Below are positions 1,380-26,558 of a stretch of DNA of 64,000 nucleotides, piece after piece (position 1 is the first letter of the stretch; every line of letters begins with the position of its first letter). The notes below the pieces were generated by a model. The model did not search any database and was not told the DNA's origin. It worked only from the letters and a program-made list of their open reading frames with translations. Where the stretch lies: assembly GCA_011605725.1 (NCBI GenBank), contig JAAOZP010000004.1, positions 185,739 to 249,738 on the forward strand. The letters run 5' to 3'. Source of the stretch: Nitrososphaerota archaeon (GTDB lineage: Archaea; Thermoproteota; EX4484-205; JAAOZP01). The position numbers and the translations under genes are program-made.

Positions 1380-1790
1380 ATGGCTGTCGAGAAGCTTTCA
1401 CTAAGATTGGCGAGGACGATCTTCTATCTTAAAGGGTTTGTCTGGCTCCTCAAGAGGAGAAGAGCATACTCGATGCAAGACGTCTTAAACCTCTTCTACA
1501 TGGATTTTCTAAAAATAGATGATAAGCATATCGAAGTCGTAAAGCTCGATGAGAACGAGCTCATAACTAGGTGTAGCAATCCATGCCCTATTTTAGAGCT
1601 TGCTAAGCGTCTCAATCTAGACACTAAGTATGTGTGTAAAGAGGTTTCTGAACCAGTCTGCAAATTCGTATTGAACAAGCTTAATCCAAGACTGGTGTTT
1701 GAGAGAAACTATGAACACATAAGACCACATGTTGAGAGCTGCGAGGAACATATATATTGGAGACGGGGTGAGAAACAAAGCGCACGCTAA
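1380..1790 (+). CDS. Hypothetical Cys-containing protein (V4R/ATC-hydrolase-like ligand-binding fold possible)
   Basis: ORF with C-x2-PCP...C-x6-C...C pattern; last codons and stop lie inside a palindrome variant (AAGCGCACGCTAA). Confidence 0.55.
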   Translation: MAVEKLSLRLARTIFYLKGFVWLLKRRRAYSMQDVLNLFYMDFLKIDDKHIEVVKLDENELITRCSNPCPILELAKRLNLDTKYVCKEVSEPVCKFVLNKLNPRLVFERNYEHIRPHVESCEEHIYWRRGEKQSAR

Positions 1791-1839
1791 ACAAAGAATC
1801 ATTGAGAAAGCACTAGGCTAAGTCAGAACTGATCCGGAG
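1791..1839 (+). pseudogene. ppsA 3'-tail fragment A (QRIIEKALG*VRTDP), between two palindromes
   Basis: Translation matches [17 protein letters not shown] of the 25436 copy. Confidence 0.7.
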
Positions 1840-2007
1840 CGCGCGCTAAACTAGTTGCATGGATTCTTGAGCATGTCGGCAGATCTGAGTTTCGAAGTTT
1901 TAAAGCATCAAGTTTAGTTAAAGCGAATTCGAGTATTTTTAAAAAAGTAGAATCGATTTTTACATTTTCTTAAGAGAAAAGTTTTTATAGTCTTTATAGT
2001 CTTTATA

Positions 2008-9026: not shown

Positions 9027-9133
9027 GATTCCAACTCCTCCTTCATCTTCAGGTACTGTTCCCTCGTGATCTCGCCCCTAGCGTATCGTTCCTTTAGGAT
9101 CTCAAGGGCCCTTCCCTCGCCCCTGGATTCTGA
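9023..9133 (-). pseudogene. SHOCT-domain protein C-terminal fragment
   Basis: RALEILKERYARGEITREQYLKMKEEL*; 5' part replaced at palindrome 9134. Confidence 0.8.
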
Positions 9134-9349
9134 TAGCGCGCGCCGGGATTCAAGATCCTTCCAAATCCCCCCAACCCCCTCGGGAACCCTTCAGAGTGCC
9201 CTCTTCATGGTGGCGCGCGGTGAGGCCCCACCAGAGCGCAAGCTACATTCAGCGTAGCTTACGCATAGTCATCAAAAACCCATTTCAAGCAGCCTTGTAT
9301 TAGCGAGGTAAAGTTAATTAAGCCTTGCCGCATAATTGAAGACAGAAGA

Positions 9350-9559
9350 ATGAGCGAAGTAACTTTGAGTATGGTGTATGAAGAGGTTAGGAAGCTGAGT
9401 AAGAAGCTGGATTTCCTTGAGGAGATAATTGAAGAAATAGTGATAAGGGAGCTGCCGAAGGCTAGGCTGAGTGACGAGGAGGTTTCAGAGATTAAAAGCT
9501 CGCTGGAGCAGATGAAGAAGGGCGATTACGTTACTTTAGAGGAATTGATGAATGCCTGA
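9350..9559 (+). CDS. Antitoxin of archaeal RelE-type TA pair
   Basis: Small acidic ORF overlapping a relE-like gene. Confidence 0.7.
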   Translation: MSEVTLSMVYEEVRKLSKKLDFLEEIIEEIVIRELPKARLSDEEVSEIKSSLEQMKKGDYVTLEELMNA

Positions 9560-9835
9560 ATATAGGGTTCTTGCCCATAGGAGAGTACTTAAATTCCTTA
9601 AACAACTGGAAGATGAGAATCTAAAAACAGGCTTAAAGAAACGATTCTTAGACTTAAAGACTACCCGGTTATTCTGAGAAGGCTTGATGTCGAAAAACTT
9701 GAGAACCTAGAAGGAGGCTACAGGGTCCGCTCTGGGGAATATAGAATCATCTTCATAGTTGATAAGAAGGAGAAGATAATCTTTATCACTCATATTGGTA
9801 AAAGAGAATCAATATACGAGAAAGAAATTAAATAG
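9552..9835 (+). pseudogene. RelE/ParE toxin, frameshifted in an A run
   Basis: MPEYRVLAHRRVLKFLK... then DVEKLE...YRVRSGEYRIIF...HIGKRESIY in the shifted frame. Confidence 0.8.
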
Positions 9836-9848
9836 CACATGAAACCCT

Positions 9849-9925
9849 TTACTCTTCGTCCGGGTCGGGCAGGTCCCAGTCAGGGTCAAGCTTGACTCGG
9901 CCTAGGGGCTTTCTTAAGCATTATG
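9849..9925 (-). pseudogene. ppsA 3'-tail fragment B
   Basis: [24 protein letters not shown]. Confidence 0.85.
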
Positions 9926-9963
9926 GAAACGCTTAAATTCTCCAAACTGATTGTCAATTAGAA

Positions 9964-10146
9964 GTGTCAGAGGTGGAGGCTACACTTAGGGAAATTAGGG
10001 AGGAGCTGAGGGAGATTAGGCTTCTGTATAAGGAGTTGATCGAGAGGCTCATACCTGTTGAGGAACCGTTAAGCGATGAGAAAGAGGCTATTGAGAGCAG
10101 CGATGAAACAGTAGGTGAGGAAGAACTCTTAAAGGCTCTGGATTAA
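9964..10146 (+). CDS. Antitoxin of RelE-type TA pair
   Basis: Small acidic ORF directly upstream of relE. Confidence 0.7.
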   Translation: MSEVEATLREIREELREIRLLYKELIERLIPVEEPLSDEKEAIESSDETVGEEELLKALD

Positions 10147-10147
10147 A

Positions 10148-10411
10148 TTGATTAAAATAGAGGCTAAAAAGAGAGTATTAAAAACATTAAGAGATTTAGA
10201 CAGGGATAGGAAAAACAGGATTAAAGAAGCCCTCCTCATCCTAAGCAACGATCCTCTACCTTTTAAAAAGCTTGATGTTATAAAGCTAAAAGGCTACGAG
10301 AACACGTATCGCATCAGGATCGGAGGCTTAAGAATAGTGTATGAGGTAAACTGGGACGAGAAAAAGATCATCATCCACTTCATAGGGCCCAGGGAGAAAG
10401 CCTATAAATAA
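10148..10411 (+). CDS. relE: RelE/ParE toxin
   Basis: DVIKLKGYENTYRIRIGGLRIVY...IGPREKAY. Confidence 0.88.
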   Translation: MIKIEAKKRVLKTLRDLDRDRKNRIKEALLILSNDPLPFKKLDVIKLKGYENTYRIRIGGLRIVYEVNWDEKKIIIHFIGPREKAYK

Positions 10412-10416
10412 AGACT

Positions 10417-10510
10417 CTACTCTTTATCAGGAAGATCTCAGCCATGATCTGTTTTAACTTGGCCCAGTGCTTCTCCAGTATTATTCTTTGCTCAACGCTT
10501 GCAACGAGTT
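10417..10510 (-). pseudogene. ppsA 3'-tail fragment C
   Basis: LVASVEQRIILEK-LGQVKTDHG*DLPDKE*; starts next to palindrome 10514. Confidence 0.82.
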
Positions 10511-10882
10511 ATGTAGCGCGCGCTTTCGAAGCTTATAAGGCCCTTATTAACTATGTTAGAGAGAGGCTGCTCCCTCTTCGCTTTTAACCTTCATAAACAG
10601 GCTTTTGACAGATAAAAAACGCTTAAAGCGCGCGCTCCTCCTCTTAAAAAACTGCTTCAAGAAATTCTGAAGCAATTAACAGGATAGAATTTAATTTTAG
10701 AATCTGTCGTTATTCAGTTACATTTTAAAATTTTAACTATGAATTATTAAAGCGCCGTTTTTAAGGCTTTCTTAGCGCGCGCACAGCAGGCTTTGCTCAC
10801 AATACCCATTTGACACCATAGTTTTCTCTAGGCTTTCGTAAAAAGCTTATAGACCTAAACATGTATACTAAACTGAAGCTGG

Positions 10883-12556
10883 ATGAACCATGAGTATTCC
10901 GTTCTTGTAGGTGGACAGGCAGGGGATGGAATAAGATTGGCAGGCTACGCTGTAGCAAAGCTTTTTAACAGACTTGGCTACTGGGTTTTTGCGTACAACG
11001 ATTATCAGTCGCTAATAAGGGGGGGTCACAACTTCTCCATAATAAGAGCAGCTGAAAAGAGGATAGAGGCGCATAAAGAAAGGGTCAACATAATTATAGC
11101 TATGAATCAGGACACTGTGGATAAGCATAATTGGAGGTTGGAGAATGAAAAACTGATTATTTTCGACTCAAACAACGTTAAGGCTGATGGGCTTGGTTTA
11201 CCTCTAACCGAGATTGTGAAAAACAGGGGCTTGCCCCTAATCGCTAGGAACTCTGTTTCACTTGGCGCTTTAGCATCAGTGTTAGGTTTAGAATTTTCTT
11301 TGATCGAAAACGTGATAAGGAGTTCTTTAAGGAGGAGCATAGATGAGAACATAGCTGTAGCCAGAGAAGGATACGAGGCCGCCAGTAATCATAAGGGCTA
11401 CTTCAGGATTCCTGTAGTTCACGGGTCTCAGCCAAAGCTGCTTCTTTCCGGAAACGAAGCTGTAGGGCTTGGTGCCGTCAGAGCCGGATTAAAACTATAC
11501 GTGGCTTACCCTATGACGCCATCAACTCCTCTTCTTCACTATTTAGCCAATAATTCTGACGAATTTGGACTACGAGCGATTCAACCAGAGAACGAAATCG
11601 CCGCCATAGGGATTGCTCAAGGTGCAGCATACGCCGGGATAAGATCAATGGTTGGAACCTCGGGCGGTGGCTTTTGCCTGATGGTAGAGCATTTAAGCCT
11701 AGCCGGCCAAGCCGAAATCCCCATTTTAATAATGATCGGTGAGAGGCCGGGACCGGCGATCGGGCTTCCCACCTATCACGCGCAGGGAGAGCTCTTGTTC
11801 TCGATATTCGCTGGACATGGAGAATTTCCAAGAATAGTTGCTTCCCCAGGCGATCCGGAAGAGGCATTCTACTTGTCTGCAGAAATGTTAAACTTAGCTT
11901 GGAAGTTTCAAGTTCCTGCAATACTGCTCGCAGATTACTGTCTTCTCGAAAGCACTTTCTCAACAATTATAGATGAAGAAAAAGTAATTATTGAAAATCC
12001 AAAAATGTGGACAGGAGAAGGCGAATACAAGCGTTACTTGCAAACAGGAAATGGTGTTTCGCCTCTGGCTTTCCCAGGAATGGAGAAAGCGATAGTAAAA
12101 TCAAACAGCTATGAGCATGACGAATTTGGCATAACGACAGAAGATCCAGAGTTAACTAAGCAGGGTGCTGAGAAAAGGATTAAAAAAAGCGTAGCAATAG
12201 AAAATGAGCTTAAGAAGAAAACGACTGTAAAAACATATGGGAACCCCATGAGTCAAATCGTTCTTATTACTTGGGGATCGACAAAAGGGGGTGTAGCTGA
12301 GATTGCAGAGAAGCATGGCCTTAGTGTTATTCAACCTTTGTATCTGAATCCTCTACCAGTCTGGGAAATTGAGAAATATCTCTCTAAAGCCGAGAAGACT
12401 ATTTGCATTGAAGCAAATTCAACTGGTCAATTAGCTAAATGGATGAAATACCATGGCTTTAGGATTGATGAAACCATTCTAAAATATGATGGAAGACCAT
12501 TCACTATAGACTACCTTGAGGAGAAAATTAAGAGGGTGATTAGCAATGAGCATTAA
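10883..12556 (+). CDS. korA: 2-oxoacid:ferredoxin oxidoreductase alpha subunit (gamma-alpha fusion)
   Basis: GGQAGDG, YQSLIRGGHN, AYPMTPST, TSGGGF, KYDGRPF. Confidence 0.93.
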   Translation: MNHEYSVLVGGQAGDGIRLAGYAVAKLFNRLGYWVFAYNDYQSLIRGGHNFSIIRAAEKRIEAHKERVNIIIAMNQDTVDKHNWRLENEKLIIFDSNNVKADGLGLPLTEIVKNRGLPLIARNSVSLGALASVLGLEFSLIENVIRSSLRRSIDENIAVAREGYEAASNHKGYFRIPVVHGSQPKLLLSGNEAVGLGAVRAGLKLYVAYPMTPSTPLLHYLANNSDEFGLRAIQPENEIAAIGIAQGAAYAGIRSMVGTSGGGFCLMVEHLSLAGQAEIPILIMIGERPGPAIGLPTYHAQGELLFSIFAGHGEFPRIVASPGDPEEAFYLSAEMLNLAWKFQVPAILLADYCLLESTFSTIIDEEKVIIENPKMWTGEGEYKRYLQTGNGVSPLAFPGMEKAIVKSNSYEHDEFGITTEDPELTKQGAEKRIKKSVAIENELKKKTTVKTYGNPMSQIVLITWGSTKGGVAEIAEKHGLSVIQPLYLNPLPVWEIEKYLSKAEKTICIEANSTGQLAKWMKYHGFRIDETILKYDGRPFTIDYLEEKIKRVISNEH

Positions 12557-13418
12557 GCTAGAGGATTTATCAACCTATGCTAAAAACACATGGTGCCCAG
12601 GATGCGGGAATTTTGGTATAGAAAGAGCAGCTAAGCAAGCTTTTATTGAACTCATAAACGAGGATAAAGTTAAAAGAGAAAAAATAGTAATGGTAACTGG
12701 TATAGGCTGCCATGGAAAAATCGCTGATTATATTAATGTAAATTCATTTTACTCTCTTCATGGAAGAGCTATTGCACCTGCAATTGGAATGAAGCTAGCA
12801 AACCCAACTCTGAATATTGTAGTATTCGTGGGAGACGGAGATGCCTTAGGGGAAGGATTGGAGCATACGGTATTTGCAGCTAAGAAAAATGTCGATATAA
12901 CCGTAATAGTTCACGATAACAGAGTATATGCATTAACAACAGGCCAGTTTACCCCCACATCTCCAAAAGGATTCCGAGGAGGTTCGACACCTAAAGGTTC
13001 TCCTGAAGAACCATTGAACCCTATCGAACTAATGCTGGTTAGCGGGGCAACTTTTATAGCTAGAGCCTATAGCGCAAACCTGAACCACACGAAGGAACTC
13101 TTTAAGCAAGCAATATTGCATAAAGGTTTTGCGTTTGTAGATGTACTCCAACCATGCTACACGTTCTTCGATACTTACAAGTATTATGGACCAAGGGTTT
13201 ATGATCTTCAACAGGATGGTCATAATCCTTTAGATTGGGAGGCGGCGCTAGCAAGGGCAAAAGAATGGAATTATGGTGGGGAGGAGGCAAAGAGGATACC
13301 TATTGGGCTCTTCTTTAAAGCCGATAAAACTACATATGAGGATGCTGTGCTCTCCGGAAAGGACTTGTATGATAAGAGTACACCTAGGATCAATATGGTC
13401 CTCCGGAGTCATGTGTAA
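12546..13418 (+). CDS. korB: 2-oxoacid:ferredoxin oxidoreductase beta subunit
   Basis: WCPGCGN, GIGC, LHGRA, GDGD, DNRVYALTTGQ. Confidence 0.93.
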   Translation: MSIKLEDLSTYAKNTWCPGCGNFGIERAAKQAFIELINEDKVKREKIVMVTGIGCHGKIADYINVNSFYSLHGRAIAPAIGMKLANPTLNIVVFVGDGDALGEGLEHTVFAAKKNVDITVIVHDNRVYALTTGQFTPTSPKGFRGGSTPKGSPEEPLNPIELMLVSGATFIARAYSANLNHTKELFKQAILHKGFAFVDVLQPCYTFFDTYKYYGPRVYDLQQDGHNPLDWEAALARAKEWNYGGEEAKRIPIGLFFKADKTTYEDAVLSGKDLYDKSTPRINMVLRSHV

Positions 13419-13956
13419 ACAAGCCGCTACCAAGTTGCATGAATCTCGGAACATATTGATGAACTGGCTGAGAAAAAGAGCCTTCACTCCGGGTAAGCTT
13501 ATTATGAGGGTAGAGAACAAGAAATAGACTAAAGCTAAATATAAAGGAGGCCGCATTAATTGATATGATGGAACACGTGGAGAAGCCTAAAGAGGCGATT
13601 AGAATACGTGTGCTAGTTTTAGTAACTGTGATATAAAGTATACTTTTTGACTTAGCACGTGGTAGTATAACTCTGAATTTCAGTGGCGGCTTAGTTCGTG
13701 CAATTTTCATCATGTCTCTAGGCACCGTGTAGAATAAATTGGCAATTTTAGCCCCCTTGACTGTAGTTAGCAGCCTGACTTTATTGTTTATCGACATATG
13801 TACGGATGGCGTCGGCATGGTCCGGTTCAGCGTGATTCACACCACGCGCGCGCTAGTCCATTCCACTTCTTTTCTTTAGAAAGAAGTCTTCAGTTTGCAA
13901 GAAAAATTCGAAAAAACCTTATATTATACGCTATGCTCCCCCTATTTTTCCTCGGG

Positions 13957-15081
13957 ATGAAAAGAATTCTCATAATCGGTGGAGGCTACTCTGGTACAGA
14001 GATAATAAGGCAGCTTGTCCTAAGAGGGGTTAGAGGCATTGAGGTGGAACTCATATCTGTCGGGCGTTATTTTGAGAACACGATAGCTGGCACAGAAGTT
14101 ATAAGCGAAAAACTGAGAGCAGAAGACCTCAGGTATGACTTACAGCTGCTCTCAGACTACTGGGGTTTCAGCCTAACAGCCGGCAGGGTCACTAAGATTA
14201 ACCTAGACGAGAAGGTCGTTAAGCTAGAGAACGGTGAGAGAGAGTACGATGTTCTTGTAGTTGCTTCAGGTTCAGTTCCAAACTTTTACGACGTGAAGGG
14301 TTTCGACCTAGCGCTCCCTAGCTACCGTCTCTCCGATTTTGAGCAAATAAACAGAAGTTTAAAAAGATTAAACAATGATCGTCCGAGAGTTATAATAGTT
14401 GGAGCCGGGTATGTGGGTTTGGAAGTAGCCGCGGAGATAATGGACTTCTTCAAATCATCAGGAAGGAAGGCGGAGGTCATTGTTGTCGAGAAGACGGGCC
14501 ACGTCCTTCCTGGTTTCAACAATGAGGCTGCTAGAAGAATGACTCTTGAAGCCATGAGCTCAAGGGGCATAGGCTTCAACTTCGGGAAGGGGGTTAAGCG
14601 CATAGCTGAGGGGAAAGTGGTGCTGGAGGACGGCAGTGAGCTTCAATCCGACTTGACGATCTGGTCAGGGGGTGTAAAGGGTTCTGAGCTCGCGTTGAAC
14701 ACTATTGGGGCCAGCCTGCATAATAGTTACATCCATGTTGATGAAAAGCTATTGATCAAGGGACGGCTGGACGCCTTCGCGATCGGTGACGCGGCTTACG
14801 TAGAGACCGGTGGAAGCGTGGCCCAGAAGATGGCTGGCGAGGCCCTCGAGCAGGCCGTGACGACTGCTAGGAACATAATTTCTATAATAGGCGGCCAGAA
14901 ACCCAGCGTCGAGCATAAGATAAACTACTCTGTCAACTTCCCTAAGGTATTGCTCTCCCTTGGCGAGGGCAAAGCGCTACTGATCTTCGGCCCGCATTAT
15001 GCAAGCCTTGGAAGCACTGAGTATTTCTTGAAGAGAAGAATCGACGTTGAGGAAATGATGGGAAGGTTCCCACGTGCATGA
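13957..15081 (+). CDS. FAD-dependent pyridine nucleotide oxidoreductase (NDH-2-like)
   Basis: GGGYSG and VGAGYVGLEVAAE Rossmann motifs, FAIGD; start re-placed at MKRILII. Confidence 0.88.
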   Translation: MKRILIIGGGYSGTEIIRQLVLRGVRGIEVELISVGRYFENTIAGTEVISEKLRAEDLRYDLQLLSDYWGFSLTAGRVTKINLDEKVVKLENGEREYDVLVVASGSVPNFYDVKGFDLALPSYRLSDFEQINRSLKRLNNDRPRVIIVGAGYVGLEVAAEIMDFFKSSGRKAEVIVVEKTGHVLPGFNNEAARRMTLEAMSSRGIGFNFGKGVKRIAEGKVVLEDGSELQSDLTIWSGGVKGSELALNTIGASLHNSYIHVDEKLLIKGRLDAFAIGDAAYVETGGSVAQKMAGEALEQAVTTARNIISIIGGQKPSVEHKINYSVNFPKVLLSLGEGKALLIFGPHYASLGSTEYFLKRRIDVEEMMGRFPRA

Positions 15082-15410
15082 TTTTGCCATAGTCAAAAAA
15101 ATGGTAGGATGAAGTTTCAATTCGACAAACTATGGCACCCTATTGTTGAAACCCCTCAGTAATTGCCGATTAGTACGTAGCGCGCGCTAAGCAAGGTTCC
15201 GAGAATGAGGTAATGAGTCAGTAGGCCGAAGGATTCGAACCCTACTAATTAGAAGCAGTCTTTTTTATCAAAATCCCTTTCGTTGATCAAAGATTGGGTT
15301 GTCATCTTTGTTTGAACTCTCAATATGGATTACAACTAGGCTTAATATGTAGCGTGCGCTAGTGGAGAAAATATATAAGAAACCTAAAGGAATTACAATA
15401 TTGACCGAAT

Positions 15411-15911
15411 GTGTTTGATAGGACGCAGTATGTTGTAGAGAAAAAGTTGTTAACAGTGTTAACGTTAGGGGAGACCTATGACATCAAGGATGTGAACGGG
15501 AACCTGTTGGGCTACATTAAAAGGAACTCAAAATTTTGGTTTGAGGGAATGGACGGATCCCGCCAAGGTGAAATCCGGGATGTGGGTGGTGCATACGAGG
15601 TTTACGATGCTCGAAATCAGCTTCGAGCTACTGTAGTATGGGCTGGGGGACTGGGGCTCCGAAGTAGTAAGTGGCAGATGAAAGATCCTCAGGGCCAGCA
15701 ATTGGCCATAGCCGAGGGTGACTTTTTGGGACGTAATTATCGCATCCTAGCGCCAGACGGAAGCGCCATAGCCCAGATACACAAGAAATGGGCATCCACG
15801 AGCTGGCAATCCTATCGCATCGATATTTCACGCCAAGGTTTCGATCCCTTCTTGATCTTGAGTTACGTTGTAGTCGATATTTCACAACAAGTGACGGTGT
15901 ACTACCCCTGA
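15411..15911 (+). CDS. LURP-one/scramblase (Tubby C-like) protein
   Basis: KKLLT..ETYDIKD.NGNLLGY...IAQIHKKW...SYRIDI. Confidence 0.75.
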   Translation: MFDRTQYVVEKKLLTVLTLGETYDIKDVNGNLLGYIKRNSKFWFEGMDGSRQGEIRDVGGAYEVYDARNQLRATVVWAGGLGLRSSKWQMKDPQGQQLAIAEGDFLGRNYRILAPDGSAIAQIHKKWASTSWQSYRIDISRQGFDPFLILSYVVVDISQQVTVYYP

Positions 15912-16114
15912 CCGATTTAGCTACAAGCAGAGGAAAACCTCTTTGAATGTCAGGGAACCAGATGCCTCCAGCTCGCACCTGACCGTTGCAGAGAGCTTGG
16001 ACTTTAACGACGCCATGATTCCTTCTGTTATAGCGCGCGCCTAACGTCAAAGGTACGCGAGTCCAACTAGAGCGTGCGTATGGAGATATTAAAAGCCAAA
16101 AAGATGATTCAAAA

Positions 16115-16222
16115 CTATTCCTTGTCATGGTCAACCTTGACTTGGCCGAGAGCCTTCTCAAGCATTATGCGTTGCTCAATAGATGCAACAAGCTTACGTG
16201 TAAACACCGCAGCGTCAGGATT
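16115..16222 (-). pseudogene. ppsA 3'-tail fragment D
   Basis: [35 protein letters not shown]. Confidence 0.88.
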
Positions 16223-16245
16223 TAAGCGAGAGAACGCGACTGTTG

Positions 16246-16467
16246 TTAATTTAAAAGCTTTATGAATTCTTCTTTCGTGATTCCGACTTGAGCCATTATT
16301 TTTAATAACGTGGTTGGAGCTATGGTTTCGTGCCGTGGTACTACTGTGAACCGGTGTTCCGGCCCCTCTAGGATCAGGTGGCTTCCTCTCTGCCTAACCA
16401 CTTTAAACCCTTTCTTGCTTAATGCCTTAACTACGTCTCTCCAAGAGAGAATTGGAAGCTTACTCAA
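16246..16467 (-). CDS. hicA: HicA toxin
   Basis: KALSKKGF...RQRGSHLIL...VVPRH...TLLKIMAQ. Confidence 0.88.
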   Translation of the reverse strand: MSKLPILSWRDVVKALSKKGFKVVRQRGSHLILEGPEHRFTVVPRHETIAPTTLLKIMAQVGITKEEFIKLLN

Positions 16468-16690
16468 TTGCTACCTCTACCGTCTTTTTCCCCTTCGCCA
16501 CTCTTTCCTCCAAATGCTCCAAAGCCAGTTCGATAGCCTCTTTCACGTTTCTTATAGCCTCCTCCTCAGTTGCACCCTGCGATATCGCCTGAGGAATCTC
16601 GAGGCACTGAGCCACGTACAGGCCCGTTTCCTCATCCTTCTCCAGGGCGACGGTAAAGGTCTTCATGCGAGGAAAAAGGCTGAAAGGCAT
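16460..16690 (-). CDS. hicB: HicB antitoxin
   Basis: YVAQC..IP.AISQGATEEEAIRNVKEAIEL. Confidence 0.88.
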   Translation of the reverse strand: MPFSLFPRMKTFTVALEKDEETGLYVAQCLEIPQAISQGATEEEAIRNVKEAIELALEHLEERVAKGKKTVEVAIE

Positions 16691-16845
16691 TATTAAGCTT
16701 TATGATACGTTGCTACTTCAAATACTGCGTCGGAACACTTTACGATGCTTATGCCATGCGCATCGGTGGACCAAGCGAGACCGTAGGTCACATGGCGGTT
16801 GCACGCGCTCGCTACAATCATTCACCGAGACTAATTATATAAGCG

Positions 16846-16878
16846 TCAAGGGTCGGGTAGGTCCCTGCCGGGGTCTGT
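16846..16878 (-). pseudogene. ppsA 3'-tail fragment E (very short)
   Basis: TDPGRDLPDP* versus [10 protein letters not shown]; abuts palindrome 16878. Confidence 0.55.
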
Positions 16879-17119
16879 AGCGCACGCTAACAGCCTACCC
16901 GGATAGAAGTGAAGCATTAGAACTCATAATAATCTGTAGCGCGCGCTATCTCTGCCAAGGAGTATAGCAAGCTGTACAGAAAAATTTAGAAAGCGAATTC
17001 TCGTGAGAGCACGCGCTATTTTAAAAAGTCGGTTAATTCAGGAAAAATATACCACCGGCATTATTCTGAAACTGCTTAATTCAAACTGTTTTATTTTTAT
17101 CTTATCTCCAGCACGCTAC

Positions 17120-17533
17120 CTACCTGCTTATCATCACTACTTCATTCTTCAAGTCGGTGAAATGCTTGTCTCCCGTAACTACCTTAGCATTTGCTCTTCG
17201 TGCTGTTGCCAATATTATCGAATCAGCTAAACCCCAATTGCTCACTTTGTTCTTTCTCTCGACATCTATCTCGCCTGAGAGCTCCGCAATATCGCGCGAC
17301 AGGTCTATGATCTCCGTAATGGTTCCAATGAACTCTAGCTTTGCCCTCCTGCCTTCAACCGTTTCCACTCCCCTTTCAATTTCCTTAAGCAGTTTTCTGC
17401 TCAGCTCTGCGATTACTACTGACGGGGTTGCTGAATCCTCCTCCTCGATATAGTGCTTCGCCGCCTCCCCTGGCTTCGAGCCTCTGAAGTACTCTATCCA
17501 AGCATATGCGTCAATCACATACTCATAGCTCAT
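17120..17533 (-). CDS. vapC: VapC/PIN toxin
   Basis: VIDAYAWIEY, VIAEL, WGLADSIILATA, VTGDKHF. Confidence 0.9.
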   Translation of the reverse strand: MSYEYVIDAYAWIEYFRGSKPGEAAKHYIEEEDSATPSVVIAELSRKLLKEIERGVETVEGRRAKLEFIGTITEIIDLSRDIAELSGEIDVERKNKVSNWGLADSIILATARRANAKVVTGDKHFTDLKNEVVMISR

Positions 17534-17723
17534 GAAATTCTGCTTCCTCCTCTTCCTTAAACCGGGAAAGCTTAGGGTTCGAACCAAACATAGAAGCAGG
17601 GATTTCCATCTTTTCAGCTAAGAGCTTTTGCAGGACTTCATCGTAGCTTTTCGCAAACAGCTTCTTCTTTAAAGCATCTAGGAGTTGCCTGGTTCTTCTA
17701 CTGACTTGAATAGTAGTAGTCAT
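17523..17723 (-). CDS. VapB-type antitoxin
   Basis: TTIQVS...SYDEVL; overlaps vapC. Confidence 0.8.
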   Translation of the reverse strand: MTTTIQVSRRTRQLLDALKKKLFAKSYDEVLQKLLAEKMEIPASMFGSNPKLSRFKEEEEAEFHEL

Positions 17724-17730
17724 AATTATA

Positions 17731-17744
17731 GTTATAGCTATAAC
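17731..17744. promoter_or_regulatory. Palindrome GTTATAGCTATAAC, probable TA autoregulation operator
   Basis: Perfect 14-bp palindrome 8 bp upstream of the antitoxin start, next to a TATA-like element. Confidence 0.5.
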
Positions 17745-18145
17745 CCATACTTATATTTTTCTCTCCTGGGACTGGTGCAGAACCTGTCAAAAGCACCACA
17801 AACCATCTATGTATGGTTTAGCTCAGCCTTTCTTCTATAACAAGGCAGGGATTTGACACGAGTTTGTTTTCCGATCATTATCCGCTTAAACGAAGGCGTT
17901 TGATTGGAAGTAGGCTGAGCGTCTAAAAAGCAGCCCCCAAGATTCCGACTACTATTGCGACTACACCGATTAGTGCTGAAACCCTCTTAGTCATTGACAA
18001 GCCTCGTTAAATCCTTCCCTATAAGGGGGTACGCTGGGTAAAATAGCGCGCGCTATACTATCTTGGGAAGCCCCACCCTTTAACGAACCTTTTTATTAGC
18101 TTAGGAGTTATGTTTTTAAGTCTCTGAAGAAATCAGTAATGCGAG

Positions 18146-18336
18146 ATGGGGAGAGCGACTCTGGAGCAGGTTTACCGTGAGATCCGGCTTCTTAGGGGGA
18201 TTTGAACCGTTTGGAGAAGATGCTTATCCCCGAGGCAGAGCCTGAGGAAGATGAGGTAAGGGCAGTAAGAAGGGGCAGGAAAGAATTCCGGGAAAAGCGA
18301 TGTGTCGAATGGAGCAAAATCAGGAAAAAGATTTAA
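18146..18336 (+). pseudogene. Antitoxin (RelE pair), frameshifted in a G run
   Basis: MGRATLEQVYREIRLL.../LEKMLIPEAEPEEDE...; similar to 9350 and 9964. Confidence 0.65.
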
Positions 18337-18337
18337 C

Positions 18338-18600
18338 TTGGCTTTTAAAATCGTCTTAACGCATCAAGCACTCAAAAGCTTCGAAAAGCTCCCCCTAAAG
18401 GTAAAAAACGCGTTTCAGAGGCCTTAGACGCTCTGGTTCAAACACCGGTTCCGTTCAGAAGCTTCGACGTTAACAAACTTAAAGGCTTTAGAAACACCTA
18501 TAGAATAAGGATAGGCGACTGGAGAATAATCTATGAATATGATTCGAAAGCAAGAGTAATAATCGTCCATGACATACTGACAAGGAAGAAAGCATACTGA
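18338..18600 (+). pseudogene. RelE toxin, frameshifted in an A run
   Basis: DVNKLKGFRNTYRIRIGDWRIIY...RKKAY*; not in the ORF track. Confidence 0.8.
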
Positions 18601-18842
18601 TTTTCAATATTTCAAGCAGTGGATTCTTCAGTCTACCCTGAGTAAGAGTATCTCTTGGCTATGACCTGCTTTCCTTTCCATATCTTTAGCTGTATGACAT
18701 GTTCAGGTGTTACAAAGAATCAGCCCTTGGCTAATTATTGCTAGGCTAAGTACAGGTAAGTCAGACAATTCCTATGAGAAAAGAATTTAAAGGCTAGGAC
18801 CCTATTTAGGGTAACGAGCTGCTATGTCGATTCCGCGCGCTA

Positions 18843-18943
18843 AAATATACGAAGTAAAAGCAAGAAGCGTAATGCATAAAACCAAAATTCTTGGTGCGGA
18901 TTGGGGTATAAACTATTATCGTGGTTGTACCCATGGGTGCATT
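18843..18943 (+). pseudogene. Radical SAM (SplB/photolyase-like) N-terminal fragment between two palindromes
   Basis: KIYEVKARSVMHKTKILGADWGINYYRGCTHGCI, cut inside the CxxxCxxC motif. Confidence 0.75.
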
Positions 18944-19040
18944 TAGCGCGCGCGCTATCCTTCAGCAGGCGAAGGGCAATTTCACTTAACGTCCTGCGTA
19001 TAAAAGAAGTTGCCGAAGGCAATTTGGGCGAAGCGCGCGT

Positions 19041-19192
19041 TACCTAGTCAAGGGCTTTCTCAAGCATAATCCTTTGCTCAATAGATGCAATCAGCTTACG
19101 TGTAAACACTGCAACATCAGGATTGATTGAGACTGAGTCGATGCTGTATCTAACTAGGAACTCGTTAAACTCCCGATGGATATTTGGGGGCT
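19041..19192 (-). pseudogene. ppsA 3'-tail fragment F
   Basis: [43 protein letters not shown]; ends at palindrome 19031. Confidence 0.88.
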
Positions 19193-19424
19193 ACTTAAAC
19201 AGCTCTAGGAAGTCCTCCTTAAGCAATTCTGATTTTGAATTCATAGCTGCTTCTACCCTCCAGCGCCCTTACTATCTTCGGGATAAGCATCTTCCACCTC
19301 TCGCCATTCATTGTGAAACGGGAAACTTAGCTCGGAAGAGGCGCAGAGCGGGCTCTATGAAATGGGTGAAGAATCAAGGTGCGAAGAGCCGATAAAGTTT
19401 ATATAGTAAGAAAAAGGTTACACA

Positions 19425-19640
19425 TTGAAGATGGAGTTTACAGTAATCATAGAGAGGGATGAAGACGGTTATTATGTGGCAGAGGTCCCTGATCTAAAAG
19501 GTTGCTACACTCAGGGAAAGACATTGGAAGAAGTTATGAGGAACATTAGAGAAGTTATAGAACTTTGTTTAGAAGCTGAAAAAGGAAAAGAGTTTCCAAA
19601 GAAAGAACTAATAGGAGTTCAAAAGATAGAGATCGAGTAA
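19425..19640 (+). CDS. hicB: HicB antitoxin
   Basis: IERDEDGYYVAEVPDLKGCYTQGKTLEE. Confidence 0.9.
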   Translation: MKMEFTVIIERDEDGYYVAEVPDLKGCYTQGKTLEEVMRNIREVIELCLEAEKGKEFPKKELIGVQKIEIE

Positions 19641-19672
19641 AATACTGTCTTCATCAAGCGGGGGAATCTTTT

Positions 19673-19912
19673 ATGAGGCTTGTTCCGGTTTCCGGCGAAG
19701 AATTAGTGAAAATCCTCTATAAGAAAGGTTTCATAATAAAAAGGAGGAAGGGAAGCCATGTTCAACTGGAGGATGCTGAAGGAAGAAGAGTAACAGTGCC
19801 AATACACCCGGGAAGAGTTATTGGAAGAGGGCTGTTGAGAAAAATATTGAGAGACGCAGAGATATCTATAGAAGAATATGAAAGGCTTAGACAAGGAAAT
19901 ACTGTGACTTAA
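19673..19912 (+). CDS. hicA: HicA toxin
   Basis: RRKGSHVQL...VTVPIH...GLLRKILRDA. Confidence 0.9.
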   Translation: MRLVPVSGEELVKILYKKGFIIKRRKGSHVQLEDAEGRRVTVPIHPGRVIGRGLLRKILRDAEISIEEYERLRQGNTVT

Positions 19913-19968
19913 GGAGTAGAAGAGCTTATTCGATCTTCCGAGGTAGCCTAACCTTTATAGCGCGCGCT

Positions 19969-20091
19969 TCTATACGGGTATTCTCTATGTCTGAGTATGA
20001 TGTGGCTACCAGTCTGATGGTCCACTTCATAGCCGATCTTGGACAGGGCCTTTACAACTTCTAGGCCGGAAACAACGGGAAGCTTAGACAT
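19969..20091 (-). pseudogene. HicA toxin 5' half, truncated at palindrome 19958
   Basis: MSKLPVVSGLEVVKALSKIGY...QTGSHIILRH...PYR, then the motif. Confidence 0.85.
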
Positions 20092-20317
20092 GAATCTCCA
20101 CAAGCTCTTCCTCTATCGATGGAGGTATCGGCTCACCGTGTTTCTTCAGGCTTTCCAAGTAGCCTCGAATAGCATCCTTTATGTTTTCAATGGCTTCTTC
20201 CCTAGTCTTCCCCTGAGAAATACAGCCAGGCAACTCGGGAACCTGGGCCACGTAGAAACCATCTTCATCCCGCTCCAGCAGTACTCTAAACTTCATGGAA
20301 TAAGGTCTAGGGAACAA
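20084..20317 (-). CDS. hicB: HicB antitoxin
   Basis: YVAQVPELPGCISQGKTREEAIENIKDAI. Confidence 0.9.
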   Translation of the reverse strand: MFPRPYSMKFRVLLERDEDGFYVAQVPELPGCISQGKTREEAIENIKDAIRGYLESLKKHGEPIPPSIEEELVEIHV

Positions 20318-20485
20318 AATATTTAAGCATTACCAAAAAGACCTCCGGCGCGTGCTGGAGGATGCAGTACCCGATGACAGTAGGCCGGAAAACTAAGAGT
20401 AATAAAATTTGGTAATCTCAATGCTAAAAAAGCATTTGACGGGGTAAAACTTATATTTTTGGGTTAAAAATTGAAAAATGGGTAA

Positions 20486-20734
20486 ATGGCAATAGTAAGG
20501 GTTGATGAAAGGGGGCGGATGACTATCCCGAGGGAAATGGGTATTAGAGATACAAGAGCAGTAGTGATACCTGCAGGAAACTTCTTCATCACAATACCGC
20601 TTCCAAAAGCACCTCGGGAAGAGGCTGAAGGATGGATGGCTACTGTAAAGGACAGGAGGCAGTTGAAGAAGCTGGCTGAGAGCGCTGCCAAGAGAGATGC
20701 TGTAAAACGTGTAAAAAGGAGGGGGCAACTTTGA
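20486..20734 (+). CDS. AbrB/MazE-type antitoxin
   Basis: VRVDERGRMTIPREM. Confidence 0.85.
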   Translation: MAIVRVDERGRMTIPREMGIRDTRAVVIPAGNFFITIPLPKAPREEAEGWMATVKDRRQLKKLAESAAKRDAVKRVKRRGQL

Positions 20735-21147
20735 TGGTGGAAACCGATATACTTTACGCCTATGTGAAGAAAGAAGACTGGTTAAAGAAAGTTGCTAGAA
20801 GCCTAATATTGAAAATTGAAAAAGGCGAGTTCGAAAAGGTATATGCATCGAGGGAGGCTCTCCATGAAATGTATTATGTGTCTAGAGAGGAAGGAGTCTC
20901 AGTAGACGAGTATATTTCCAGAGTGGTAGCACTAACCAATATAAAGAACTTAGTATTCTTAGAGACAACACATGAAATCGACCTTCTAGCGTTAACTCTG
21001 ATGAAGCAATACGGCTTAGAATCGATTTTCGACGCTTACTATGCTGCAACTGCATTAAACCAGGTTCCAGACCACTCGATAATATCTACTGACACTGTTT
21101 TCGACAGGATACCTGGAATAACGAGAATCGATCCGCGTGAAATATAG
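20731..21147 (+). CDS. vapC: VapC/PIN toxin
   Basis: VETDILYA, LHE, SIFDAYYAATAL, ISTD. Confidence 0.88.
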   Translation: MMVETDILYAYVKKEDWLKKVARSLILKIEKGEFEKVYASREALHEMYYVSREEGVSVDEYISRVVALTNIKNLVFLETTHEIDLLALTLMKQYGLESIFDAYYAATALNQVPDHSIISTDTVFDRIPGITRIDPREI

Positions 21148-21202
21148 GGTGCAAGTGTGCATGTGGAATTTTTCACTCCTTTTTAATTTTCTTTTAAAGA
21201 GG

Positions 21203-21357
21203 CTAGACCCTCGTCTTCCTTGACTTTAATTCGAGTATGCTGTTGAGCCAATCAAGATAATCTGGGTTTCCCATGGTTATTGGGACAACTATTATCTCAG
21301 GAATATCGTATGGATGATTATCTTTAATAGTCTTCTCAAGCTCGTTGTAAAGGCTTT
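21203..21357 (-). pseudogene. CutA divalent-cation tolerance protein C-terminal fragment
   Basis: KSLYNELEKTIKDNHPYDIPEIIVVPI..GNPDYLDWL; begins at palindrome 21358. Confidence 0.85.
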
Positions 21358-21642
21358 TAGCGTGCGCACAACTCTAACAACAGACGATAAAGGAGAGATA
21401 GATGTATATCTCTCTAACTATGGTTCTAGCGCGCGCGACTAATTGGAGATTTTCGTAAGAAAGGGCTTTACACTTGCATAGCTAGAGACATAAGAGATCC
21501 GGAAAACACTAGGCTGATTCAGGAGATAATTAAAATCCAGCACAATGTAAGGTCTAACTTGAAGAAATATAGCCTAGGCTTGATAAGGATAATACATGAG
21601 CATGTGTTAATCTGGAGGAAGGAGTCTGTTTAAGATCAGGCT

Positions 21643-22164
21643 TTAAACTATTTTCTTGGCAGCTTCTATAGCCCTCTCCCTCTGCTTTCTACTAACGTAA
21701 AGGCCTTGACTTATGCAAGCGTCTAGAATTCGAACGTACTCGTCGACTGATTTTAAGTAGTTGCTTCTCAGCGCATCGTGAAGAATTTCCGTAAACCATC
21801 TTGTCTTCACACCCAGCTTCTTCGCGACTTCAATAGCCTGCTTATCGTTAGCAAGGAATATTTCTCCCAGCTCCTTTGCTAAGGCTATAGAGTAGGCTTC
21901 TCCAAGACCTAGGCCTCCCTCAATAAGGCTTTCCACAAGCTCGATTGAATGCTTTTCCTTAGGGTCTTGAAGAATAATCCATTCTTTTCTGGCTTGGGAG
22001 ATTAGAGAGAAATCTTCATCGCTGAGAAAACCCCGTTTATAAAGGTGAACGATGTCCTGCCAAACTGGTGAGCAAACCCTTACCGATCCATAAACATTCT
22101 TAAGAAGATCCAGCCTTCTTATTTTCGCAAGGTAGATTATAGGGCTTGTGTTGGAAAGCGTCAA
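21643..22164 (-). CDS. DUF3368-type PIN protein
   Basis: SNTSPIIYLAKI, LGLGEAYSIALA, NDKQA. Confidence 0.82.
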   Translation of the reverse strand: MTLSNTSPIIYLAKIRRLDLLKNVYGSVRVCSPVWQDIVHLYKRGFLSDEDFSLISQARKEWIILQDPKEKHSIELVESLIEGGLGLGEAYSIALAKELGEIFLANDKQAIEVAKKLGVKTRWFTEILHDALRSNYLKSVDEYVRILDACISQGLYVSRKQRERAIEAAKKIV

Positions 22165-22171
22165 ACCTTAT

Positions 22172-22417
22172 CTAATCATCTGGTCCCCTTACTGGGATCC
22201 TTGCCCTAGCCCTTATGTAGTCAAACTCTGTAACTGGTAAGCCGGCTATTTCAGCAGCCCTGCCTATGGATACTCTACCTTCCATGTAGAGCTCTAAGCC
22301 CAGTTTAATCCTGTTCGGAAGCGAGTTAACGTAATCCCAGTCTATGGGCACAAGTAAATCATCCTCGGTAAACCAGTACTTCTTTGTCTTTAACGCCTCC
22401 TGAGACATGCAGTTCAA
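22172..22417 (-). CDS. UPF0175-type antitoxin
   Basis: LYMEGRVSIGRAAEIAG. Confidence 0.8.
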   Translation of the reverse strand: MNCMSQEALKTKKYWFTEDDLLVPIDWDYVNSLPNRIKLGLELYMEGRVSIGRAAEIAGLPVTEFDYIRARARIPVRGPDD

Positions 22418-22517
22418 TGATTAAATACTATCCTCTCTTTAAATACTTTTTCCATATGCGCAAAATCTAGAAGGAAAGAAGAGCTGTATTATAACATGAC
22501 TGATAAAACTCATAATT

Positions 22518-22802
22518 GTGAAATACTGGGTCTGCACAACATGCGGAAGATTAACTCCAGCCGTATCAGGATTCTGCACTTACTGTAAAGCTCCTTTGCC
22601 TAGCTTCATGAATTCTCCAGATCAAAACAATAACGGAATATTCCTAGGCTTTAATCAAGATAATAAGTTTTTCCTACCGTTAGAATTCCTCCCTTACCAT
22701 TTTGCTTTCTACGGCGTTACGGGAAGCGGGAAGACGAGGCTTGCCATGAAATTAGCGATAGAGGCTGAGAAAGTTGGCTTAAAGCTTCTCATACTTGATT
22801 AA
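22518..22802 (+). pseudogene. Zn-ribbon plus HerA/DUF87 ATPase N-terminal fragment
   Basis: CTTC...CTYC, then HFAFYGVTGSGKT...LLILD and an abrupt stop. Confidence 0.75.
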
Positions 22803-23727
22803 AGCTTTACATTATGAGTACAGTGGAGAGGTTCAACCATACATTTGGTGCCCTGAGACTGAAGCCATGTGGAAGGAGATAAAATGTGGAGGAGGTTGGC
22901 CTTCTGGAGGAAATGAAGGAGATTGGTGCAAAGTCTGGTGGCTAGATTGGACAGGCTGGAAATGGAGGCAAGGAGTTTGGGATCCTGATCAAGGCTATTG
23001 CATAATAACAAGCGGGCAAGCTCCTAATAATGGTTGTACTGATGATAGAAGGGAAAGCACAGCTAGCGGAATAGCTGACCTTTGTCCAGGAAATACAGCA
23101 GGAGATGGAAAGTGTGAGCAAGCATGCGGAGCAGATGCAAGCTGTGATGAAAAAGATACTGGCGATACATGCGGAACAAACGGAAGATGTGCAAGCTATT
23201 GCTTGTGCTGCGAAGGAAGCGATAGCGATGGAGGTAAAGTCTACACAGTGAAAGGAACCACTTCTGGATATTATCAAGGGAGTTGCCAGAGCTTCAATGA
23301 TACTTGCGTCTGGGAGCTTGGAAAACTATACTTGCAAGAATACTTCATTTCTGACAGGAGGATAAATTCTGAACTTTATGACTGCAGCCAGAGGACTGAT
23401 GGGTCGATAAGATGCATAGATGGAAAATGTGGTTGCATGTACGATTCAGACTGTCCTTCTATAGCAGGAAGAAAAGGAACATGTGTGAATAATATTTGTC
23501 AATGGGGTCCTTGCAAAGAAAATTCTGATTGCGATCCTGGATATTGTTGTGAAGCAAAGGTTGGTTCTATCACTATCAACCCGCCATACGGCTGTGTTTC
23601 TCAAGGAACGATAAAAGATAATAAGTACCTATGTGACCCTCCTGAATGGAATGGTGCTTCAAAACAAACTATTTTTGGTTTGTTATTCTCCTATTTCAAG
23701 ATTTTAATCCAAAAAATTATGGGTTAA
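22795..23727 (+). CDS. Cys-rich surface-protein-like ORF, probably a C-terminal fragment
   Basis: Very Cys-rich; DSDGG..YTVKGT...DTC...LQEY unit; no signal peptide. Confidence 0.6.
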   Translation: MIKALHYEYSGEVQPYIWCPETEAMWKEIKCGGGWPSGGNEGDWCKVWWLDWTGWKWRQGVWDPDQGYCIITSGQAPNNGCTDDRRESTASGIADLCPGNTAGDGKCEQACGADASCDEKDTGDTCGTNGRCASYCLCCEGSDSDGGKVYTVKGTTSGYYQGSCQSFNDTCVWELGKLYLQEYFISDRRINSELYDCSQRTDGSIRCIDGKCGCMYDSDCPSIAGRKGTCVNNICQWGPCKENSDCDPGYCCEAKVGSITINPPYGCVSQGTIKDNKYLCDPPEWNGASKQTIFGLLFSYFKILIQKIMG

Positions 23728-25435: not shown

Positions 25436-25625
25436 TTACTCTTCGTCTGGATCGGGCAGGTCCCAGTCGGGGTCAGTTTTGACTTGACCTAAAGCTTTCT
25501 CAAGCATGATGCGTTGTTCAATTGATGCAACCAGCTTGCGTGTGAATACCGCGGCATCAGGATTGATTGAGACAGAGTCGATTCCAGCTCTGACAAGGAA
25601 CTCTGTAAACTCAGGATATATTAGG
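25436..25625 (-). pseudogene. ppsA 3'-tail fragment G (longest, uninterrupted)
   Basis: [41 protein letters not shown] matches the archaeal PEP synthase C-terminus. Confidence 0.9.
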
Positions 25626-26396: not shown

Positions 26397-26558
26397 CTAT
26401 TCGTCAGAGTTGCTCATAAGGGCTTTCTCAAGCATTATGCGTTGCTCAATAGAAGTAACAAGCTTTCTAGTGAACACCGCAGCATCAGGATTAATAGACA
26501 CGGAGTCGATGCCTGCTCTAACAAGGAACTCAGTGAACTCAGAGTAAACACTTGGGAG
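26397..26558 (-). pseudogene. ppsA 3'-tail fragment H
   Basis: [46 protein letters not shown]. Confidence 0.88.

Follow-up and report, generated by a model that had tools for sequence, protein, structure and literature searches.

A stretch of DNA of 64,000 nucleotides from a hot-spring archaeon (GenBank assembly GCA_011605725.1, contig JAAOZP010000004.1, positions 185,739 to 249,738; here called the window, with positions counted from its first letter) contains a short GC-rich palindrome in many copies. The palindrome sits where homology with other genomes or with paralogues breaks. New copies arise de novo together with deletions, and are still being made in the window's lineage, while older copies are inherited and decay. 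We interpret the palindrome as the junction scar of a process in which DNA is broken and rejoined, and the mini-arrays, in which neighbouring copies enclose short unrelated pieces, as slivers of DNA left between successive events. We give this reading a probability of about one half.

A palindrome at the edges of homology

The repeated site is a perfect 12-bp palindrome, TAGCGCGCGCTA. With up to two mismatches it occurs 29 times in the window, against an expectation of 1.31 from 100 shuffles (standard deviation 1.0, largest count 4, none of the 100 reaching 29), and 25 of the 29 copies lie within bases 1–21438. The genome carrying the window (G000, an assembly of 2.23 Mb in 20 contigs, of which the window is the end of contig C4) holds 28 perfect copies, 76 with one mismatch and 175 with two. 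A control with the letters reversed gives 1, 5 and 103, so that the totals up to one mismatch are 104 and 6. Nearly all copies with no or one mismatch are therefore real, and about half of those with two may be due to chance. The copies are grouped in islands, for example at 20–70 kb and 170–220 kb of C4, 0–60 kb of C1 and 60–80 kb of C9.

Alignment of the 104 copies reveals no conserved flank outside the 12 bp, and the mismatches are concentrated at positions 1, 2, 11 and 12. The core is A(GC)4T, usually in the form TAGCGCGCGCTA, with (GC)3–5 variants: the genome contains 154 (GC)4 runs, 32 (GC)5 runs and 17 (GC)3 runs with TA/TA flanks. Since the GC run varies in length, the invariant unit is A(GC)nT, with T...A preferred outside it. 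As a single strand the palindrome is calculated to form only a 4-bp hairpin (-0.7 kcal/mol as DNA, -2.2 as RNA); the calculated value for pairing of two (GC)4 strands is -14.4 kcal/mol. Open reading frames (ORFs) of at least 100 aa cover 85% of the genome yet contain only 10 of the 104 sites, several of these overlapping a stop codon, and the other 94 lie outside.

The form of the site brings to mind the footprint left on excision of a cut-and-paste transposon that targets TA, in which a TA duplication would enclose the four terminal letters, GCGC, of both inverted ends. This is precisely how the canonical 12-mer is built (TA-GCGC-GCGC-TA), and TA/TA is the commonest flank of the (GC)4 cores (28 of 154). 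The footprints of Tc1/mariner elements are palindromic in like manner. Against this, the IS630/Tc1-type domain DDE_3 (PF13358) was found in 0 of 17 genomes of the genus, although insertion sequences may be missing from metagenome-assembled genomes (MAGs); G000 has neither DDE_Tnp_1 nor rve; and self-BLAST of the genome found no multi-copy element of at least 95% identity. Nor would a footprint be expected to go with the loss of 55–2321 bp in which remnants of both ends are kept, as was seen in each of the eight cases described below. We consider such an origin quite improbable.

The first 22 kb of the window are a mosaic of small cassettes on both strands (three VapBC, three HicAB, a ParDE, a PIN/UPF0175 pair and a RelE-like remnant). 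Ordinary genes are interspersed, among them 2-oxoacid:ferredoxin oxidoreductase and a pyridine-nucleotide disulphide oxidoreductase. Nearly every block boundary of this mosaic carries a site, and it is at the sites that matches to other genomes end. The segment 17019–18043 is 84% identical to contig C3 of genome G013, the match running from the edge of the site at 17007 to the edge of the site at 18044; both ends of the G013 counterpart lack a palindrome, and the membrane-protein gene there continues. The HicA gene near 20 kb is cut exactly at a site relative to the intact copy in G002 (Table 1). The G006 counterpart of the VapBC pair at 20486–21147 has been trimmed by two sites, neither of which is present at the corresponding positions of the window or of G013. 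A DNA search across the genus found several families of matches that start or stop at the edges of the sites at 18044, 19958, 19031 and 10626 and of a degenerate site at 21358. Of 595 matches in the genome self-BLAST, 16 have their left end and 14 their right end within 5 bp of a site edge, compared with 1 of 595 for random positions and 3 of 595 for shifted positions.

The toxin-antitoxin cassettes are 80–97% identical between species, in which they lie at unrelated loci, while the neighbouring oxidoreductase genes are only ~71% identical (positions 9000–23000 compared with the genus). These identities suggest recent exchange of cassettes between species. They would also suit an integron-like system, in which a site-specific recombinase acts on pre-existing palindromes, and cassettes are excised, inverted and re-inserted: VapBC, HicAB, ParDE and MNT/HEPN cassettes are bounded by sites and occur in either orientation, and there is polymorphism between a solo site and a site-piece-site arrangement. 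However, sites arise in DNA that had none, donor copies lack them, and the weak hairpin noted above is nothing like the structure of an attC. A tyrosine recombinase is found once in G000, on another contig, and not at all in G016, a genome with 35 perfect sites; no intact serine recombinase was detected in G000, G002, G016, G010 or G013. An integron-like system is thus in our view improbable.

Sites flank recently acquired ordinary genes too. At C2:8000–12000 palindromes enclose the CstA and CobW-like genes, for which a DNA comparison with five relatives from the same clade gave no match. The genes are therefore accessory DNA, with no empty-site comparison.

New sites, deletions and inheritance

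The stretch is contained in 24 public runs from 19 studies dated 2017–2025, eight of the runs having at least half of its words. They are hot-spring and sediment metagenomes, except for run X14, which has a coded organism label. For a comparison of populations, the assembled contigs of four runs were placed on positions 9000–23000.

In all eight cases in which a site-less counterpart spans a site, the palindrome replaces between 55 and 2321 bp. There were no simple insertions among the eight, and no target duplication in any of them. In G000, the stretch replaced is 698 bp long at C11:60697, within a paralogue of a LAGLIDADG-type gene; 928 bp at C10:139, by comparison with C11, the starts of the two contigs being identical otherwise; and 1173 bp at C1:248348, in a gene of ~500 aa that is intact in G010. 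Five of the eight cases are strain variants from hot-spring metagenomes, and the process is therefore ongoing. One of these variants is a contig of 3.7 kb from run X1, in which 55 bp of an ORF that is intact and site-less in the window have given way to a palindrome (Table 1); the contig otherwise differs from the window by 12 letters. Elsewhere, metagenome contigs have AGCGCGCGCG in place of 574 bp that include ParDE, and CGCGCGCACT in place of 2321 bp. At several joints, the joined DNA itself supplies the A and T next to the core, and at some of these a GC too. The letters at these joints suggest joining through a microhomology of 1–3 nt with a GC-rich linker. The fillers of four joints, of 33, 30, 25 and 13 letters, were matched over their full length neither in G000 nor in the loci used for comparison.

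Mini-arrays vary between strains as well. The site at 18044, which is solo in the window, is represented in 4 of 4 runs by two copies around a piece of ~95 bp like 19148–19242. Slivers between two sites are gained or, more likely at 18044, lost. In run X1 the segment 16863–16936, consisting of the first site of mini-array 1 and the 47-bp piece after it, is exchanged for 1067 other letters; contigs of runs X4 and X5 have mini-array 1 unchanged.

An earlier note on this DNA, made from the sequence alone, had offered two explanations for the mini-arrays, one of them being that larger cassettes were whittled down by repeated site-directed deletion. This is close to the truth, in that deletion was seen in every informative case and the sliver at 18044 is polymorphic. 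What does not hold is that the deletions are directed by sites, because the scars arise de novo, as at the joint of 15659 with 15715.

A different view of the same observations is that the palindrome is itself mobile, as an element of 10–12 bp inserted at new places by an enzyme acting in trans, in the manner proposed for REP elements and mitochondrial GC clusters, nearby copies then recombining to give deletions, with the mini-arrays as an intermediate. The copies are indeed many, intergenic and restricted to one lineage; slivers are lost from site to site, 17 slivers of 37–100 bp are present, and a single pair of sites stands back to back (C5:83385/83395). Yet an insertion by itself, which is what this view requires, was seen in none of the eight informative comparisons, and there is no indel of 10–12 bp among the best-supported indels listed for the four runs, with 42 more beyond that list. 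Moreover, the pieces on the two sides of a site are usually not collinear, as is seen after the radical-SAM fragment from the translation of 18958–19030, and neither RAYT nor a transposase was found. We regard a mobile palindrome as rather unlikely. Were it correct, no smaller mobile repeat would have been described in archaea, and the palindrome would offer a tractable parallel to the 40-year-old puzzle of the mitochondrial GC clusters.

The CDC48 sequence places the organism in Brockarchaeota, the nearest named record being a Candidatus Brockarchaeota MAG with 98% amino-acid identity. A count over 251 genomes of the phylum gave at least nine perfect copies in six only, all from the window's genus (35, 28, 26, 14, 11 and 9 copies); one further genome of the genus has four. 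Genomes rich in perfect copies are G000, G002 and G016, followed by G007, G008 and G006. Beyond the genus the highest counts are five (G105) and four (G142), in genomes from other families of the phylum, and may reflect small bursts that occurred independently or the base composition; all other genomes have none or one. A midpoint-rooted DNA tree of a single gene, CDC48, unites all genomes that carry the palindrome in one clade of eight, with support of 100/99. The eighth member of this clade, G010, has, over 398 kb, no perfect copies, 5 with one mismatch and 21 with two, compared with 0, 0 and 5 in the control. Decayed copies are present in it at positions orthologous to sites of its sister G006, and sites are therefore inherited and decaying. 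The decay consists mostly of CpG transitions (C to T and G to A). When G006 and G010 were compared around further sites of G006, the islands proved to be largely unshared.

These results also bear on whether the palindrome could be due to chance, or to a linker introduced during library preparation or assembly. Palindromic linkers can join unrelated fragments in some library types. However, the copies avoid ORFs, decay by point mutation and hold orthologous positions in two species; they recur across runs of 19 studies; and a 12-mer is unable to mis-join contigs built from 31-letter words. We find an artefact hardly credible.

Pieces between sites and candidate enzymes

The features of the window that bear on the palindrome are collected in Table 1. 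The earlier note had described sites enclosing pieces of 47, 58, 101 and 73 bp in the two mini-arrays near 17 and 19 kb, and these are indeed present in the sequence. It listed similar pieces at 1790–1836, 10526–10625 and 21370–21426, of which the first two are bounded by sites and the third is not properly so, since its left site (21358–21369) has three mismatches.

Table 1 Sites, inter-site pieces and replaced segments in the window. Runs are those in which the replacement was seen.
Position	Strand	Feature
1778..1848		Mini-array: site / 47-bp end of a ppsA tail (QRIIEKALG*) / site
10514..10784		Mini-array: site / 100 bp / site / 135 bp / site, upstream of 2-oxoacid:ferredoxin oxidoreductase genes
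15178..15361		Perfect site / 160-bp piece / site with 1 mismatch
15660..15714	+	55 bp within a LURP-one-related-like ORF (15411–15911); GCGCGCGCT instead in run X1
16878..16889		Site TAGCGCACGCTA, 1 mismatch; left end of mini-array 1
16890..16936		47-bp sliver between sites; unique in the genome
16937..16948		Perfect palindrome TAGCGCGCGCTA
16949..17006		58-bp sliver between sites; unique in the genome
17007..17018		Site GAGCACGCGCTA, 2 mismatches; G013 homology begins directly after it
17019..18043	-	VapC (PIN)/VapB pair and 3' remnant of a small membrane-protein gene
18044..18055		Perfect palindrome at a breakpoint
18202..18570	+	RelE/ParE-like toxin-antitoxin remnant, frameshifted in the window
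18553..18667		115 bp; GCGCGCGC instead in run X1
18831..18842		Site TTCCGCGCGCTA, 2 mismatches; left end of the second mini-array
18843..18943	+	101-bp N-terminal fragment of a radical-SAM gene, cut within CxxxCxxC
18944..18957		14-bp site variant TAGCGCGCGCGCTA, (GC)5
18958..19030		73-bp sliver
19031..19042		Site AAGCGCGCGTTA, truncating a ppsA 3' tail
19042..19230	-	ppsA tail (copy of the 3' end of the PEP synthase gene), one of ~10 in the genome
19958..19969		Site TAGCGCGCGCTT, at the exact truncation point of HicA (19948–20103, minus strand) relative to the intact G002 copy
20329..20408		80 bp; GCGCGCGC instead in runs X4 and X1
21427..21438		Site TAGCGCGCGCGA, the final one of the dense island

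The distances between sites in the genome (n = 256) range from 37 bp to tens of kb and have no period. Seventeen are of 37–100 bp, only three of these being below 50 bp (37, 47 and 47), and 16 are of 100–200 bp; none is of 0–36 bp. The 101-bp piece reads ..KIYEVKARSVMHKTKILGADWGINYYRGCTHGCI (..RGCTHGCI) and runs as far as the palindrome's TAG. By tblastn, the genome has two other radical-SAM genes with similar N-termini (E values of 2e-5 and 2e-4), which agrees with the description of the piece as the start of such a gene. The piece at 1790–1836 translates to the end of phosphoenolpyruvate (PEP) synthase, ppsA, as comparison with other ppsA tails shows. The view that the enclosed pieces come from cellular genes is borne out by these two identities. 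The comparison of pieces with the host genome that the earlier note proposed was made for nine short pieces, none of which has a second DNA copy there. Four short inter-site pieces are 94–98% identical to genome sequence that is not flanked by sites (C16:242–410, C9:60797–60865, C6:25761–25827 and C5:83327–83378).

These four pieces are among the reasons for considering the other explanation in the earlier note, a Cas1-like insertion of fragments with duplication of the site. In a fuller form, which extends to casposase-like capture, an integrase would insert fragments into the palindrome by a staggered cut of ~10 bp. It would account for pieces with full sites on both sides and for the one tandem of sites that looks empty. 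However, the only Cas1 of G000 (C11:136629–137417) stands beside an ordinary CRISPR array with a 26-nt repeat, which it presumably serves; there is no ruler, the pieces ranging from 37 bp to several kb and the distances between sites up to many kb; and cassettes lie on both strands. Such an integrase cannot make solo sites in site-less DNA with a deletion. In addition, several of the apparent donors belong to a multi-copy mobile cassette, and the pieces may thus be remnants. Duplication of the target site on insertion may apply to single events, yet leaves the de novo scars unexplained. The Cas1-like explanation is unsupported, and we hold it to be very unlikely. The CRISPR array itself (C11:137800–140140) lies downstream of cas1, has at least 36 repeats and runs off the end of the contig, and contig C15 starts inside the same repeat family (C15:1–3060).

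Two further observations concern Table 1 entries. Compared with the window, each of the four metagenome runs has an additional G after 18194, and two have one after 18402; judging from these letters, the RelE/ParE-like gene may be intact in other strains. From 18995 on, many metagenome contigs match the window but diverge before that point (eight loose ends in run X6 and three in X1), and the depth in the bin 18995–19034 is 4–7 times that of neighbouring bins. The right half of the 73-bp sliver is therefore a repeat found in many contexts; it contains a small inverted repeat, TTGCCGAAGGCAA. No Rfam family was matched in positions 1–24000, and no tRNA was found in the window.

Copies of the last 40–60 codons of ppsA number about ten and are spread over two islands of C4. 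Those in the window are at 9847–9924, 16124–16222, 19042–19230, 25490–25618 and 26418–26546, the real gene being at C4:36021–38429. Such tails are present in every genome of the genus, including those that have no palindrome, and they look like attachment-site duplications from elements that integrate into the 3' end of ppsA. Metagenome contigs contain joints between two tails, from 9887 to 16143 and from 9881 to 19042, which remove 6.2 and 9.2 kb respectively as a block. Further along C4, a defence island lies between palindromes (C4:45000–65000, locus L020). It encodes the R subunit of a type I restriction system, an OLD-family TOPRIM nuclease, a NERD nuclease and several large ORFs of no known kind (443 and 592 aa among them); the matching type I S subunit is just upstream of it (locus L019, 18242–19582; C4:43241–44581).

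A three-gene unit is found in multiple copies, often broken and at contig ends, with 0 to 16 copies per genome. The one at C9:19465–22153 (locus L007, 1966–4654) encodes proteins of 366, 303 and 223 aa, the first with weak TGT/DpdA-like features and the second of the LAGLIDADG_3 family. Fragments lie at C11:1–904, C11:59960–61153, C10:1–141, C12:5–865, C20:1–273 and C9:65767–66042. Its LAGLIDADG gene is multi-copy in the palindrome-rich genomes, but has 11 matches in G010 too.

None of the other families searched for follows the palindrome either. Y1/RAYT transposases (PF01797) were found in 0 of the 17 genus genomes, while being detected in control genomes, and DUF4143 ATPases occur in 17 of 17, with no correlation with the palindrome. 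In G000, G002 and G016, compared with G010 and G013, the TnpB zinc ribbon is found 1, 0 and 5 times against 6 and 0; the tyrosine recombinase domain Phage_integrase 1, 6 and 0 times against 5 and 2, the single G000 match being on C17; and DDE_Tnp_1 0, 0 and 1 times against 1 and 0. In the same five genomes the only resolvase is a pseudogene, in G016, and there is no rve, RVT_1 or C5 methylase. A Pfam scan of 142 island ORFs of at least 170 aa gave no transposase, integrase or recombinase at E <= 1e-5; it took 142 of the 149 such ORFs, the seven omitted including the ppsA gene (locus L019, 11022–13430). Searches of PHROGs and PDB with the window proteins that lacked an assignment gave nothing useful. 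There were no RNA runs among the public runs listed for the stretch. A 22-mer taken from the sequence to the left of mini-array 1 had no matches in the metagenome collection; a pattern of two cores matched at least 120 loci there, mostly by chance at 60–78% GC, and is uninformative about distribution. The exact 12-mer was not found in the literature, where a search with GCGCGCGC, archaea and palindrome gave nothing related. Searches on cassettes, palindromes and target duplication and on Brockarchaeota contained no such repeats among the matches listed.

A proposed break-and-rejoin model and its relation to known systems

On the basis of these observations, we propose that a stretch of DNA is removed or moved, that the ends are rejoined, and that the palindrome is laid down at the joint. 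Both DNA ends would acquire the same self-complementary GC-rich tail or linker, either from a dedicated end-processing enzyme or by copying of an existing palindrome through a microhomology of 1–3 nt. The two tails would then pair, for which the calculated energy is about -14 kcal/mol for (GC)4, and be ligated, so that any two ends could be joined, loose fragments included. Where DNA is dispensable, as in toxin-antitoxin cassettes, defence genes, decayed mobile elements and acquired genes, recurrence of such events would cut genes at arbitrary positions and place unrelated blocks side by side, and the short slivers remaining between neighbouring scars would be the mini-arrays. Adjacent scars may later recombine and drop the sliver between them, and some pieces of the mini-arrays may be relocated fragments. 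A junction scar would account for solo sites with deletions, for the joints of inversions and translocations and for fragments with two sites, and also for the variation in (GC)3–5, the absence of flanking signals and the absence of a recombinase.

Several points weigh against a junction scar. No enzyme was found, and no family tested tracks the palindrome. The five scars seen in populations come from assembled contigs rather than raw reads, and three of them have ~30 letters on the shorter side. The tally of eight out of eight is small, and BLAST-based searches favour deletions over 12-bp insertions in diverged DNA. The 33-letter filler bears a site and has no full-length template in the genome, so that copying from a template is without direct support. 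Simple tailing does not explain why A...T beside the core is nearly constant while T...A outside it is found in about 50%, and the absence of sites 0–36 bp apart is unexplained.

A bolder possibility, which we hold to be less likely than not, is that this clade of Brockarchaeota has an end-joining or rearrangement pathway of a new kind, which would heal any two ends with the same self-complementary GC linker. The linker might be self-propagating, each scar serving as template for the next, and the pathway would act as an engine that deletes, shuffles and captures accessory DNA, foreign genes included. Genomes of the clade have sizes of 2.0–2.3 Mb, against 1.3–1.8 Mb in relatives of at least 90% completeness, and a pathway of this kind, if it exists, would explain the difference.

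If junction scars are what the palindromes are, they would provide a countable signature of illegitimate recombination in an uncultured archaeon, with the same 12-letter mark for each deletion, inversion and capture, and the history and rate of rearrangement could be read from sequence and from metagenome time series. They would point to a DNA end-processing or end-joining activity of a new kind; end joining in archaea is poorly understood. They would also imply a route, needing neither integrases nor transposases, for the building and erosion of toxin-antitoxin and defence islands. Joining of arbitrary ends with a fixed linker could be of practical interest.

On the features tested, the phenomenon fits no known family, although it shares something with several. 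Like CRISPR, it has the look of a repeat, a short piece and a repeat, but CRISPR repeats are regular and ~23–50 bp long with spacers of similar length, and are duplicated on insertion. Here the repeat is 12 bp with no period, the pieces are host-gene fragments and whole cassettes, and new repeats come with deletions. Integrons likewise have arrays of small cassettes, often toxin-antitoxin, parted by a repeated site; their attC sites are 55–140 nt long and folded, whereas the site here has 12 bp, cassettes are in mixed orientation, sites are created in site-less DNA, and no IntI-like gene lies near the arrays.

Repetitive extragenic palindromic sequences (REPs), with their mosaic assemblies (BIMEs) and RAYT transposases, are similar in having hundreds of intergenic palindromic copies that are species-specific and mark the boundaries of rearrangements. 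They differ in being imperfect hairpins of 20–40 nt with a conserved head, and in the RAYT, which is lacking in all 17 genomes here; to our knowledge, REPs have not been reported as fillers of de novo deletions. The fillers of end joining (polymerase-theta-type joining and the N-nucleotides of V(D)J joining) are extra letters between non-homologous ends, often with loss of the flanks, and as otherwise known they vary between joints. Here a genome has one and the same self-complementary A(GC)4T at well over 100 joints.

By analogy, the nearest parallel is with the palindromic GC clusters of yeast mitochondrial DNA, such as GC42, which are ~30–50 nt long with a constrained hairpin and an AG target duplication. 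The archaeal element, at 10–14 bp, has no usable hairpin, shows no target duplication in the eight cases, belongs to a chromosome rather than an organelle, and is seen only as a filler of deletion or rearrangement junctions (8 of 8). What the two have in common is that they are short GC-rich palindromes in non-coding DNA, sporadic among close relatives and linked to recombination and rearrangement, with a mechanism of spread that is still open (PMC4478555).

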